Assembly: GCA_031459875.1 (NCBI GenBank)
Contig: JAVKHQ010000016.1
Location: 1-64,000 of the forward strand
DNA: 64,000 nt
DNA from: Candidatus Fervidifonticultor sextus
GTDB lineage: Bacteria; Sysuimicrobiota; Sysuimicrobiia; Sysuimicrobiales; Humicultoraceae
Direction of reading: 5' to 3'
This document shows, piece by piece, positions 18,001 through 21,000 of the stretch (position 1 is its first letter; every line of letters starts with the position of its first letter). Position numbers: made by a program.

Positions 18001-21000
18001 CGCCGCCGCATAGGGCAGCGCCATCCGGAAGATGCGACAGGAATCCTGGAAGCGCCGGAGGTGCGCGCCCAGGCAGAAGACCGCCGGCCCCGTCGCGGTC
18101 TCGTAGGCCCGGATGCCCTCGAAGACGCTCGATCCGTAGTGGACCACGTGCGAGGCCACGTGAATGCGCGCGTCGTCCCACGGAATCAACGTACCGTCCA
18201 TCCAGACCCGGCTCGCTCTCTGCACTGCCGCCACCTCCACGAAGACAATGATGCCGCCTCCACCCAAGGGCGAAGGCGGCCTCCGCGGTACCACCCCGGT
18301 TGACAGATGCCGCAGCGGCTGGTGGAGCAGAGGGGAATTGAACCCCCGACCTCCCGCACGCCAAGCGGGCGCTCTCCCGCTGAGCTACTGCCCCATGGCA
18401 CCTGTCCGCTTCAGGCCCGTATCGTGGACGGACGGTGGAGGCTAGGGGACCGGACCCCGTCGTCTCCACGGCTCCCGGGCGAGTTCGGCGATCCCGCCGG
18501 TCGGTTCGCACCGTCCCCGACTCGCTCGGCGGCAGGAGGTCCGCCTACTGCTCCCGATCATCGCCATCCTGCGATGGACCGTCGGGCCCATCACCACGAT
18601 TATACGCGCGCCCGAGGGGGCGTCAACCTCACAGCTTGTAGCCGAAGCGCCGTAGCAGGTCCTTGCGCCAGGCCACCTCGGCCTCGTCCTCGACGCCCAG
18701 CGGCACCCAGCCGTCCAGCACGCCCAGGATCCCCCGCTGGTCGGCCTCTTCGGCCACCACCACCTTCAGGGGATTGGCCGTGGCCGCGAAGATCCTGACG
18801 ACCTCCGGGCAGGCCTTCACGGCGTGGAGGACGTTGATGGGATAGAACCCTTCGCCCAGCACAATCAGGAAGCAGTGGCCGGCTCCAATCGCGAGGGCAT
18901 TCCTGACGGCCAGGTCGACCAGTGTCGCATCGGTCCCGGTCTTCCGGACAAGCCGCCTTCCGCTCGACTCGCAAAACGCCAGGCCGAACCTGATGCCGGG
19001 GACCGCGGTCACCAGGGCCTCGTGCAGGTCCTCCACCGTCTTGATGAAGTGGGACTGCCCGAGGATGATATTGAGGGCCTCAGGCTTCTCGATGGGGACG
19101 ACTGTGAGCTCCATGCTCCGATTCTACGGCCAGGCCGGGGCGTCTGTGAACTCCATGGGGGTTCGGGGGGGCACCATCTGGGTCCTCCTCCCCCAGCCGC
19201 TTCACCCCGCCGTCTTCGAGCGGCGGGCCAACCGGTTCGCCGCCCACCTGCGCCTCGAGGACGGCCGGCGGATCTACGCCCACCTTCCCAACTCCGGACG
19301 GATGACCGACCTGCTGGTCCCCGGTGCCCGGTGCCTGATCCATGTGGCCCCTGCCTCCGGTCGGCGGACCCGCGGCACGATGTGCCTCGTACGTCAGGGT
19401 GGCCGCTGGATCGGCCTGGATGCGCGACTCCCCAACGCGGTCTTTGAAGCGATGCTCCAGGCAGGAGGCTCGCCTCCCTTCACCCGGGTTCGTTCCTGGC
19501 GGCGCGAGATCCACTTCGACGACGCCCGCATCGATTTCGCGCTGGCGACTGCGGACGGGACGTGGCTGGTCGAGACCAAATCGTGCAACCGCGTCGAAGG
19601 CGGCGTCGCCCTCTTCCCCGACGGACCGACCGCCCGCGGCACGCGCCACCTGGAGGCGCTGACCCGCGCCGCGCGCCGGGGGATCCGGACCGCGGTGGTC
19701 TGGTTCGTCCAGCGCGCAGACGCCCGCCGGCTGCGGCCGGATGCCGACAGTGACCCGGCCTTTGCGGCCGCGGCGGCCGCCGCCGCCAGCGCCGGCGTCC
19801 GATTCTACGCTTACCTGTGCCGCCCGACCCCGCAGCGGCTCACGGTGCACAGGCTCATCCCTGTGGAGGTGCCTGCGTTCCCCTCCTCGGGACCACTCAG
19901 ACCGAGGGCGGAGGGGCCTTGAACCTGGCGGCAGCCTCCGCAGAGGGCGTCCGGGGCCTCGCGGGGACGACCGGCGCCGGGGCTCGGTGCGGCGGTCCAA
20001 ACACGAGCGCCCGCTTCAGCAACTGGATGGCGAGCGCCGGGTCCACCCCCTTAGGGCAGGCCTCGCTGCACGCTCCCGCCAGGTGGCAGCCGAAGACCCC
20101 CTGGAGGCTGTCCACCACATCGGCACGGACCCCGAAGCCGCCGTCGCGGCTGTCGGCTGCGTACCGGTAGGCCTGGGCGAGCGCCTGCGGGCCCAGAAAC
20201 TGCGGGGTGGAGGCTTCCGTGGGACAGGCCGCCAGGCAGAGGCTGCACTTGAGGCAGTAGGAGAACTGCACGTACGCCAGCATCTCCTCCGGCGTCTGGG
20301 CGTACTCGCGGCTCGGCCGCTCCTGCTCGGCGACGTCGGGCCGGATCAGGTAGGGCCGCACCGTGCGATGCTTCTCGAAGGTCCGTCCGAGGTCGCAGAC
20401 CAGGTCCTTGATCACGTCGTGGTTGGGCAGCGCTTGCAGGTCGACGACCGCTCCCAGTTCCGCCACCTGGGTGGTACACGCCAGCCGCGGCCGGCCGTTG
20501 ATCAGCATCCCGCACGACCCGCAGACGCCCATCCGGCACGAGCAGCGAAACGCCAGCGAGCCGTCCTGGTGCTCCTTGATGGCGAACAGCACATCCAGCA
20601 CCGTCATCCCGGGCAGCAGCGGGACCTGCCAGACCTGACGGCGCAAGCCGGCGTCCCGCTCGGGATTGAAGCGGGCCACCCTGACGGTTACCATGGTCTC
20701 CCAGCCAGCGCGATGACCGTCACCCCGTAGACGAAGACCAGCAGGCCGACCAGGACGACCCCGACGTCGATCGCCCTTGCGGCCCGCAGAGAGGGCCAGA
20801 CCTCACGCAGGATCCCCCGCGTCCCGTAGAGGCCGTGGTAGAGCGACAACCCCAGCAGCACCACGTAGACCCCTCGCCAGAGGGCCGCCCGATCCCTGGC
20901 CGCCACGGCGGCAAACGCCAGGACCGGCTCCGACGGCCGGCCGAGGGCCCCCAGCAGGGCCGAGTAGTGCATCAGGGCCATGTGCAGCCCCCCCACCACC

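Follow-up and report, generated by a model that had tools for sequence, protein, structure and literature searches.

The canonical transcriptional T-box leaders of aminoacyl-tRNA synthetase (aaRS) genes are of the Bacillus subtilis leuS, tyrS and glyQS type. Transfer RNAs can also be co-transcribed with mRNA, as in the Escherichia coli thrU-tyrU-glyT-thrT-tufB operon and in mitochondrial tRNA punctuation, where excision by RNase P and 3' processing defines the mRNA ends. The discriminator motif of T-boxes is given, in the part of PMC7583486 consulted, as RRRxG-Stem III-AA. Sections of PMC7913692 describe leaders that are themselves cleaved: RNase III cleavage sets mRNA decay in the Staphylococcus aureus met T-box leader, cleavage just upstream of the terminator of B. 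subtilis thrS leaves a stabilising structure (Condon 1996, cited therein), and the pbuE adenine riboswitch is cut by RNase P (Seif and Altman 2008, cited therein). A full-text literature search returned no published description of a tRNA gene nested in a T-box leader.

We analyzed such an arrangement in Candidatus Fervidifonticultor sextus, where an earlier survey of the genome had reported a tRNA-Ala(GGC) gene within the T-box leader of the ilvE-leuS operon. The window comprises the whole stretch of DNA under study, 64,000 nucleotides of contig JAVKHQ010000016.1, and the features of the locus are listed in Table 1. We conclude, with a probability of roughly 0.8, that this is a working Leu-sensing transcriptional T-box of ilvE-leuS with a working tRNA-Ala(GGC) in its Stem III loop, and that the tRNA is most probably no more than a passenger occupying a permissive site. 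A single leader transcript appears to act as regulator and tRNA precursor at once, the tRNA presumably being transcribed within the leader and then cut out.

Table 1. Features of the ilvE-leuS leader and operon (positions in the window)
Feature	Position	Strand	Basis or remarks
Promoter-like site TTGACG-16-TATAAT	18599..18626	-	-35 18626-18621, -10 18604-18599; 11/12 matches
T-box leader, RF00230 model 1-219	18263..18570	-	Rfam alignment
Stem I: GA/K-turn motif UGA...AGUA, AG bulge AGCGAG, distal loop GGUGCGA, specifier loop	18471..18564	-	Rfam alignment
Specifier codon CUC (Leu)	18481..18483	-	GAA before (18486-18484), purine G18480 after
Stem II (18469-18435), Stem IIA/B region, linker to purine string AAGCG (18411-18407)	18411..18469	-	Rfam alignment
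Stem III 5' arm GACAGGUGCC	18397..18406	-	AU (18396-18395) between arm and tRNA position 1
tRNA-Ala(GGC), 75 nt, encoded CCA	18320..18394	-	anticodon 18362-18360, G3:U70, A73
tRNA 3' trailer GCCGCUGC (18319-18312) and Stem III 3' arm GGCAUCUGUC (18311-18302)	18302..18319	-	AA next (18301-18300)
Antiterminator	18266..18297	-	A1 GGGG 18297-18294/CCUU 18269-18266; A2 GCGGA 18286-18282/UUCGC 18274-18270
T-box bulge UGGUACC	18293-18287	-	between antiterminator helices A1 and A2
Terminator hairpin GCCGCCUUC (18280-18272)/GGAGGCGGC (18261-18253), U-tract AUCAUUGUCUUC (18252-18241)	18241..18280	-	alternative to antiterminator
Shine-Dalgarno GGAGG (18238-18234) and ilvE, class IV aminotransferase	17296..18238	-	Aminotran_4, 1.7e-46
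leuS, leucyl-tRNA synthetase	14822..17275	-	LeuRS editing domain 1.2e-62, tRNA-synt_1, Anticodon_1

The survey's finding of a full-length T-box with a CUC (Leu) specifier was reproduced. The Rfam model RF00230 matches the minus strand at 18570..18263 over positions 1-219 of 219 (53.9 bits, E 4.9e-11), and the 91-nt insertion in the Rfam alignment falls exactly in the Stem III loop. The specifier loop carries its codon followed by a purine (GAA-CUC-G, 18486-18480), the K-turn and the distal tRNA-elbow platform motifs are present, and the Stem I motif columns are nearly invariant in an alignment of 30 relatives. A tRNA-Leu(gag) that matches the specifier, with an A73-CCA end, is encoded on contig C66, and UGGU of the T-box bulge is complementary to the A-CCA end of this tRNA. 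The RRRxG-Stem III-AA discriminator takes the form of AAGCG (18411-18407), a 10-bp helix and AA (18301-18300); the helix (18406-18397 with 18311-18302) encloses the tRNA and is retained in the minimum free energy (MFE) fold along with the terminator. Antiterminator and terminator have bases 18280-18270 in common and are mutually exclusive; in 30 sequences of the phylum, the nine pairs of the antiterminator are 100% paired and the nine of the terminator 94.4%. The U-tract behind the terminator is weak, and this terminator was absent from the output of the consensus terminator scan. Downstream, the GTG start of ilvE was placed at 18225 from the sequence, with the stop codon at 17296-17298, and leuS probably starts at 17275 (MTMRYDPSAIERKWQ...), ~20 nt past the ilvE stop.

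With 53.9 bits, the leader does not reach the RF00230 gathering score (93 bits), and a gathering-threshold Rfam run over the whole window does not return it for this reason. The low score is one of two observations that would agree with an independent tRNA gene, transcribed from an unrecognised promoter of its own and surrounded by a decaying T-box relic that no longer regulates ilvE-leuS. The other is that the lineage of genomes G021 and G022 is in such a state, with a promoter directly ahead of the tRNA and neither Stem I nor Stem II; in G021 a consensus promoter lies 14 nt ahead of the tRNA in a leader that lacks both stems. We nevertheless judge a relic improbable here. Each of the eight T-box matches in the genome scores below 93 bits (83.8 to 29.0 bits), so that low scores are usual in this 70% G+C genome; the shortfall is ascribed to the 91-nt insertion and the G+C-rich sequence, and the same nested leaders in AT-richer phyla score 100-133 bits. 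Specifier, K-turn, distal loop, purine string, bulge, antiterminator and terminator are intact and conserved in the phylum. As to a separate promoter, TTGACG-16-TATAAT is the lone sigma-70-like site in 18000-19000, where shuffled sequences average 0.1 sites, and it begins where the upstream adenosine-kinase-like gene ends, directly behind its stop codon. In line with the survey, which had placed a single promoter-like site (11/12) upstream of Stem I, no further site was found between it and the tRNA in a scan for the sigma-70-type consensus; an internal promoter of some other kind is possible.

The tRNA itself was recovered by two methods, as had been claimed for a tRNA-Ala(GGC) with encoded CCA in the Stem III loop. 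The single ARAGORN call in the window is tRNA-Ala(ggc) on the minus strand at 18394..18320, and the Rfam tRNA model (RF00005) gives it 66.6 bits against a cut-off of 29. The alanine identity elements of a tRNA are the G3:U70 pair and A73. The nested tRNA has G3:U70, an A73-CCA end and the anticodon GGC, and G3:U70 is present in 30/30 relatives (alignment columns 244 and 310). All 21 stem pairs of the cloverleaf are paired in the same 30 of 30 relatives, with eight pairs changed on both sides. Among the 53 ARAGORN calls of the genome it is the sole credible GGC alanine tRNA in a 96%-complete assembly, where a second could be unassembled. Another ARAGORN 'tRNA-Ala(ggc)', on contig C1, was rejected: Rfam gives no match for it at E<=1, and it falls within an open frame that is permease-like. 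Alanine makes up 12.5% of codons over 1,891 crude ORFs, and GCC is its commonest codon (50,421/111,366, 45.3%). On both points, the uniqueness of the GGC tRNA in this assembly and the rank of GCC, the survey was right, and from codon usage we infer that the nested tRNA is essential.

A tRNA-shaped insert could in principle have ceased to decode and instead serve the riboswitch as a structural module, for example a decoy or scaffold, without being released from the leader. The tRNAs embedded in GOLLD RNA, in the part of PMC12990946 that treats them, show that structured non-coding RNAs can hold tRNA elements. For the present locus we consider such a module very improbable, since it would have to account for an anticodon that ARAGORN reads as GGC in all 138 loci assigned to Ala among the matches listed, for the retention of G3:U70, A73 and CCA, for 100% cloverleaf pairing with compensatory changes, and for the lack of any other credible GGC alanine tRNA in an assembly that uses GCC more than any other Ala codon.

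The nested layout was found in 41/94 genomes of the phylum Sysuimicrobiota, in 5/7 families. The survey had rightly described it as conserved in the phylum and had set its extent too low, at 31 genomes in 3 families; its count of tRNA-Ala(ggc) in 30/30 phylum loci was obtained again, each with ACCA and with the T-box sequence 16-43 nt behind. The presence of the layout outside the phylum was likewise confirmed, and its spread had been understated. A tRNA-agnostic pattern, applied across phyla to one genome per species, gave at least 120 loci. Among the matches listed, tRNA-Ala(GGC) stands just ahead of the T-box sequence in 108/120 loci, and a GAA-CUY-R specifier motif lies upstream in 105 of these 108. 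These loci, at least 108 with tRNA-Ala(GGC), belong to Chloroflexota, Bacillota and others, and are mostly ahead of leuS among the matches listed. The first downstream ORF encodes LeuRS in 42/71 leaders; a further 12/71 first ORFs are without any Pfam family, probably because wrong frames were chosen in G+C-rich DNA. In 20/20 diverse nested loci a full-length Rfam T-box encloses the tRNA, and 10 of the 20 are above the cut-off (93.7-133.2 bits). Cultured carriers of the layout are Thermosyntropha lipolytica, Desulfotruncus alcoholivorax, Desulfofundulus thermosubterraneus, Desulfitispora alkaliphila and Tengunoibacter tsumagoiensis.

The helix that encloses the tRNA was examined in 127 distinct loci and occurs in 105 different sequences among them. 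An uninterrupted run of 7 bp or more can form in 59% of the loci, compared with 17% when the locus's own spacer is shuffled and 22% when the spacer of another locus is used. The duplexfold energy, which includes pairs outside Stem III, is -12.7 as observed and -8.9 with swapped partners. Stem III pairing amounts to 73.9% in a MAFFT alignment of 30 sequences that is not structure-aware, a figure explained by shifted rows.

Variant arrangements within the phylum bear on the question of what the nesting is for. In one genus (g4), Stem III of the same Leu T-box is an ordinary one, and the tRNA-Ala(ggc) lies 118 nt upstream; judged from these sequences, this suggests that the Stem III loop is a permissive site and that nesting may not be a requirement. 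In one family (f4) the nested layout occurs in 0/23 genomes, and tRNA-Ala(ggc) is elsewhere, as seen in G069. Both cases speak against the nested tRNA being a functional part of the switch, its excision serving to cleave the leader by design immediately upstream of the antiterminator/terminator. Such a cut would give the read-through ilvE-leuS mRNA a new 5' end beside a protective hairpin, or would time and insulate the folding of the discriminator, and the many terminated leaders would become useful as tRNA precursors. In favor of a functional role, more than 100 species of different phyla conserve the layout, the cut would be made at a place in the leader at which cleavage matters in other systems (as far as these are covered in the relevant sections of PMC7913692), and the promoter is near-consensus, as expected if it supplies a major tRNA. 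Nesting is, on the other hand, confined to one tRNA species and one T-box class, with tRNA-Ala(GGC) making up 108/111 of the tRNAs found by the tRNA-agnostic pattern among the matches listed, and a general device would be expected elsewhere too. On this balance a functional role is possible, and we lean against it. That the nested tRNA is always Ala(GGC) could indicate a specific function, which a passenger would not explain.

A passenger tRNA in a working T-box remains our preferred reading, and the tRNA-Ala(GGC) would be kept in the leader because the cell needs it. That the tRNA is transcribed within the leader and cut out of it, as the survey held, is inferred from the requirement of the T-box for Stem I and antiterminator on one transcript, and from the conservation of both T-box halves around the tRNA in more than 100 species. 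Transcription would begin at the single promoter upstream of Stem I and proceed through Stem I, Stem II, the Stem III 5' arm, the tRNA, the 3' arm, the T-box sequence and the terminator. The tRNA would fold independently and cap Stem III, where T-boxes tolerate insertions, and the discriminator, composed of Stem III and the antiterminator, would form in the usual way. Uncharged tRNA-Leu(GAG) is predicted to set read-through versus termination. Since it is positioned upstream of the terminator, the tRNA would be produced from every leader transcript, terminated or not. Its release is expected to need RNase P cleavage at the 5' end and, at the other, an endonuclease with 3' trimming to the encoded CCA, which would split the leader in two. 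Of the processing enzymes, RNase P RNA (251.8 bits), RNase E/G and RNase Y were identified in the genome; a family search of the genome gave no clear RNase Z (best 69.6 bits, cut-off 292.95). Observations that count against this preferred reading include the T-box score below the cut-off, the weak U-tract and the G021 promoter 14 nt before the tRNA.

Contigs from RNA libraries were aligned to one locus (L081) of a Syntrophomonas metagenome-assembled genome (24 runs, shares 0.07-0.22). Such contigs give no depth, ends or strand, and the comparison includes no silent control stretch. The contigs of two RNA libraries (X1 and X5) cover leader, tRNA and T-box part, with DNA carry-over possible, and a contig from the Syntrophomonas relative bridges the tRNA 5' end with only 28 nt on the tRNA side. 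In run X2 the tRNA core alone is covered, and run X24, of unspecified kind, resembles DNA of a 93%-alike strain. The contigs from the Syntrophomonas relative offer a weak hint of co-transcription of leader and tRNA.

A more far-reaching proposal is that the leuS T-box and its nested tRNA-Ala(GGC) form a single, ancient composite gene that predates the divergence of Chloroflexota, Bacillota and Sysuimicrobiota, and that maturation of the tRNA belongs to the mechanism of the switch. We offer this tentatively, as something we would sooner doubt than accept. Once the decision has been taken during transcription, excision of the tRNA by RNase P and 3' processing would sever the sensor half (Stem I/II) from the expression half; the Stem III duplex alone would join the halves for a time, and the leuS mRNA would be left with a new, hairpin-protected 5' end. 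If the proposal is true, how much of a major alanine tRNA is supplied depends on the leuS promoter, and the terminated leaders, which are abundant, serve productively as tRNA precursors.

A working gene for a different tRNA within this hairpin, conserved in numerous species of several phyla, would mean that a riboswitch and a tRNA precursor can share a transcript, that the switch has to withstand its division by RNase P or make use of it, and that terminated leaders are not waste. There are practical consequences for annotation. Pipelines based on the Rfam cut-off will overlook T-boxes of this kind in G+C-rich genomes, as the 53.9 bits obtained here illustrate, and operon maps in which the nested tRNA counts as a gene of its own will put the leuS promoter in the wrong place. 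The existence of cultured carriers makes the question directly testable.

The leader shares with canonical T-boxes the Stem I and specifier, Stem II with IIA/B, RRRxG-Stem III-AA, the UGGN bulge, the antiterminator/terminator and a downstream aaRS gene. It differs in Stem III, whose loop is a few bases long in the canonical form and here contains a tRNA gene of 75 nt, specific for a different amino acid, together with short spacers. With a tRNA gene in this position, the leader would also be a tRNA precursor and is expected to be split by tRNA processing. The S. aureus met-leader, as portrayed in portions of PMC7913692, is comparable in that a large insertion of 150 nt with three stem-loops, specific to its lineage, stands near Stem III and in being cleaved by a housekeeping RNase with an effect on the fate of the mRNA; here the insert, a tRNA gene, occupies the loop of Stem III itself, and cuts by RNase P and 3' processing are expected. 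In B. subtilis thrS and in the pbuE riboswitch, mRNA stability is altered by cleavage upstream of the terminator or by RNase P, as tRNA excision would do here; the accounts of these two in the same portions of PMC7913692 involve no tRNA gene, whereas the cleavage signal in our leader would be a genuine tRNA, with a predicted effect on the mRNA. GOLLD RNA, in the excerpted description of PMC12990946, also has a tRNA gene within a larger structured non-coding RNA, although it is a large RNA of tRNA arrays and prophages with no assigned function and not a tRNA-sensing riboswitch. Finally, mixed tRNA-mRNA operons carry their tRNAs beside the mRNA, whereas in the ilvE-leuS leader the tRNA lies inside a regulatory fold whose halves must cooperate.

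We have recovered a full T-box leader (RF00230) on the minus strand of the window, confirming the survey's finding of a complete leader with a 91-nt insertion in its Stem III loop. A permissive Rfam run over positions 18150-18700 placed the match at 18570..18263 (model positions 1-219, full length, 53.9 bits, E 4.9e-11), and the insertion was read from the RF00230 alignment of this leader. The T-box is absent from the gathering-threshold Rfam run of the whole window because 53.9 bits falls short of the family's gathering score of 93. All eight T-box matches of the window's own genome (G000; 70% G+C) also score below 93 bits (83.8 to 29.0), so the low score is no mark against this leader. 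The promoter-like site reported as the only one held up as well: it was the sole hit on both strands of 18000-19000, with a mean of 0.1 in shuffled sequence, and none was found inside the leader. An adenosine-specific-kinase-family gene (18629-19114, minus strand) ends 2 nt ahead of the leader's -35 box, and an ECF-type sigma factor gene (13487-14071, minus strand) lies downstream of leuS.

Elements of the ilvE-leuS leader and the nested tRNA gene, in window positions
Element	Position	Strand	Remarks
Promoter-like TTGACG-16-TATAAT	18626..18599	-	directly 3' of the stop codon of the adenosine-kinase-like gene
Stem I	18564-18471	-	K-turn, AG bulge, distal loop, specifier loop
Specifier loop GAA-CUC-G	18483-18481 (codon)	-	
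Stem II, IIA/B region, then purine string AAGCG	18411-18407 (AAGCG)	-	
Stem III 5' arm GACAGGUGCC	18406-18397	-	then two bases, AU, before the tRNA
tRNA-Ala(GGC), CCA encoded	18394-18320	-	then 8-nt trailer
Stem III 3' arm GGCAUCUGUC	18311-18302	-	then AA
Antiterminator, bulge UGGUACC	18297-18266	-	overlaps the terminator hairpin
Terminator hairpin	18280-18253	-	weak U-tract; not listed by the consensus terminator scan
ilvE opening	18238-18234 (GGAGG); 18225 (GTG)	-	Aminotran_4, 1.7e-46
leuS start		-	about 20 nt past the ilvE stop; LeuRS editing domain, 1.2e-62

The sequences flanking Stem III agree with the discriminator domain motif RRRxG-Stem III-AA given in PMC7583486. An energy-only fold of 18425-18245 retained the terminator as well as a 10-bp Stem III enclosing the tRNA.

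The nested tRNA is a real and probably needed gene. It is the single tRNA called by ARAGORN in the 64-kb window, and with 66.6 bits it clears the Rfam cut-off of 29, which bears out the claim of a tRNA-Ala(GGC) gene with encoded CCA in the Stem III loop. The whole genome yielded 53 tRNA calls and one tmRNA. Four of the calls are for alanine: cgc, tgc and two 'ggc', the nested one and one on contig C1 (80779-80854; 380-455 of locus L001). The last was rejected as false, having no Rfam match at E<=1 and lying inside a permease-like open frame, which leaves the nested gene as the only credible tRNA-Ala(GGC) of the assembly, as had been proposed; a second GGC copy could be unassembled, since the assembly is 96% complete. 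Several other ARAGORN calls of 90-95 nt (Arg, Gln) in this G+C-rich genome may also be false. In 1,891 crude ORFs, alanine makes up 12.5% of all codons, and GCC supplies 50,421 of the 111,366 alanine codons (45.3%). That the insertion is a tRNA-like module that does not decode fits the data poorly and is scarcely credible. The CUC specifier is read by tRNA-Leu(gag), which the genome also encodes and whose 3' end, A-CCA, fits the UGGU bulge.

The leader, as query in a blastn-type search, had matches in 94/94 genomes of the phylum, mostly through the tRNA part; in all 30 of the best loci (G000 included), tRNA-Ala(ggc) with ACCA is followed by the T-box sequence 16-43 nt 3' of the tRNA. A tRNA-agnostic pattern, made up of a tRNA T-loop and, 25-55 nt further on, a T-box motif, was present in 39 of the 94 genomes, with 0 matches for the reversed pattern. 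One match (G085) was excluded from the count for its differing tRNA 3' end and T-box-like motif, and three genomes (G026, G028 and G029) with spacers just outside the pattern range were added, the layout having been seen in their best-30 loci. Conservation within the phylum thus stands, although its extent had been understated at 31/94 genomes in three families: the nested layout occurs in 41/94, G000 included, in five families (f1 24/34, with G000; f3 10/22; f5 5/12; f6 1/1; f7 1/1), and the pattern search of the 94 genomes found it in 0/23 of family f4 and 0/1 of f2.

Pairing was counted per element, for a specified structure, on a 30-sequence MAFFT alignment (A1). The 21 cloverleaf pairs are paired in 30/30 sequences, eight of them changed on both sides, and G3:U70 is present in 30/30. 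The antiterminator is 100% paired, the terminator 94.4%, and the whole structure 94.1% versus 49.5-62.1% with partners slid by 1-3 columns. Stem III, with three pairs changed on both sides, is only 73.9% paired because MAFFT shifts rows. The unpublished genome G024 is one row of A1, one of the 30 best loci and one of the 41 genomes; the conclusions are unchanged without it. Another unpublished genome, G016, enters only the results of the blastn-type leader search, and nothing concluded here depends on it. The enclosing helix was assessed by pairing the 24 nt before the tRNA with the spacer behind it in 127 distinct loci (136 had sufficient flank). The longest uninterrupted helix had a median of 7 bp, and helices of at least 7 bp were found in 59% of loci, versus 17% with the locus's own spacer shuffled and 22% with the spacer of another locus. 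The 127 loci hold 105 different helix sequences, and in 70 of them it stops 6-7 nt short of GGTGG, at the canonical end of Stem III.

Evidence against a required role for the nested tRNA comes from genus g4, which has the T-box without it. In G013 of this genus (L152 3040-3650, minus strand), a Leu T-box (62.6 bits) whose Stem III is ordinary lies 118 nt downstream of a same-strand tRNA-Ala(ggc), TTGACT-17-TACAAT falling in the interval, an arrangement that is tandem and not nested; the T-box of G010 (L155, 78.2 bits) likewise has no tRNA inside. A specific role or history is favored by the constancy of the pairing, the nested tRNA being always Ala(GGC) and the leader always a Leu/leuS T-box. 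Other layouts occur in the phylum. G021 (L026 1400-1720, minus strand) has TTGACG-17-TATAAT 14 nt before tRNA-Ala(ggc) and has lost Stem I and II; its leader gives no Rfam T-box match and retains the Stem III arms, T-box sequence, terminator and ilvE, and the spacer downstream of the tRNA is the same in G022. In G069 (family f4), tRNA-Ala(ggc) is on a different contig from every T-box match. The leader of G032, a 73%-complete MAG (L016 1513-1773, minus strand), retains specifier, nested tRNA and discriminator; the distal half of its Stem I is missing, with 4 nt in place of 55 model positions, through real deletion or assembly error.

When the pattern was run on one genome per species (185,579 species), at least 120 loci matched. 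Among the 120 matches listed, ARAGORN called tRNA-Ala(ggc) in 108, Thr(tgt), Glu(ttc) and Leu(cag) once each, and none in nine, two of which are cut by a contig end. GAA-CUY-R stands 69-196 nt upstream of the tRNA in 105 of these 108 Ala loci, and two of the three exceptions have no upstream sequence. By record titles, carriers among the matches listed include Chloroflexota (Thermomicrobiales, Ktedonobacteria, Limnocylindria, Anaerolineales, Caldilineae), Bacillota (Syntrophomonadaceae, Peptococcaceae, Thermoanaerobacteraceae, Thermacetogeniaceae, Desulfotruncus, Desulfofundulus, Desulfitispora), Coprothermobacterota and a few MAGs with other labels. All 20 loci picked for diversity from the 108 have a full-length Rfam T-box enclosing the tRNA, and ten exceed 93 bits (93.7-133.2). 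In an evenly drawn sample of Chloroflexota (the phylum of Tengunoibacter), 40/401 genomes matched, counting pattern matches only; one is the unpublished G361, without which the conclusions are unchanged.

First downstream ORFs were computed for 103 loci, and the 71 from loci with full flanks were searched against Pfam, giving 42 LeuRS, 11 GNAT acetyltransferases, three class IV aminotransferases, two AMP-binding enzymes, one hydrolase and 12 without a Pfam family. The GNAT gene comes first in Limnocylindria-type records (L043, L056, L061, L065, L076, L079, L080, L096, L098, L100, L110), an AMP-binding enzyme gene in Desulfotruncus and Desulfofundulus (L046, L075), and ilvE in the window's phylum. 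Under Rfam clan competition, alanine tRNA genes with the end CUCCACCA are displayed as sub-threshold tmRNA in place of tRNA (38.7-45.7 bits versus a cut-off of 47; L153, L154, L016 and many of the 20 diverse loci), which is an artefact.

A T-box functions only with Stem I and the antiterminator on the same nascent RNA, and more than 100 species conserve both of these halves around the tRNA. Transcription must therefore pass through the tRNA gene; that the T-box is a relic and the tRNA gene independent fits the data poorly and is highly improbable. From these sequences we infer that the tRNA would be co-transcribed with the leader and then processed. Among the 66 loci with upstream flanks of 1 kb or more, 12 (L037, L055, L068, L069, L071, L073, L089, L092, L093, L102, L106, L107) have a tRNA-Ala(cgc) just upstream of the leader on the same strand, such that two alanine tRNA genes, identical at 58-66 of about 76 positions, flank Stem I and II. 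Some of these loci (e.g. L069) have no room for a promoter, since Stem I motifs start about 20 nt past tRNA-Ala(cgc).

RNA contigs from two metatranscriptome runs of two studies (libraries X1 and X5; strain about 95-97% alike, contigs possibly derived from DNA) were aligned to L081, a Syntrophomonas sp. MAG locus with T-box 1763..1478 and tRNA 1608..1536 on the minus strand. Positions 1448-1585 (X1) and 1448-1610 (X5) are covered, comprising the 3' part of the T-box and the tRNA, as are 1581-1728 in both libraries, comprising the 5' part of the tRNA, the Stem III 5' arm, Stem II and Stem I. Contig depth is 6-16, and the X5 stretch 1448-1610 shares 30 nt with 1581-1728. Across the tRNA 3' end the bridge passes the 31-nt rule; across the 5' end it has only 28 nt on the tRNA side. 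These contigs hint weakly at co-transcription of leader and tRNA.

For a tRNA with encoded CCA, RNase P cuts the 5' end, and the 3' end is formed by endonucleolytic cleavage and then exonucleolytic trimming; the nested tRNA would be released by the same steps. G000 has genes for the RNA component of RNase P (251.8 bits) and for RNase E/G (353.5 bits) and RNase Y (731.8 bits), and a family search found no clear RNase Z.

Our preferred reading, to which we assign a probability of roughly 0.78, is that T-box and tRNA both work, the tRNA riding as a passenger at a permissive site; since its gene precedes the terminator, each leader transcript would yield a copy, which would then be excised. That excision is itself part of the regulation has precedent in known leader cleavages cited in PMC7913692, and we consider it possible but rather unlikely. 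We found no account of a T-box that harbors a tRNA gene in open-access full texts, most subscription journals lying outside the search, and none is given in the accessible portions of PMC7583486, PMC7778990, PMC2494555, PMC7913692 and PMC12990946. For T-boxes, PMC7583486 mentions, in the portion available, 'curious insertions in every domain' and nothing more specific; GOLLD RNA contains embedded tRNAs according to PMC12990946.
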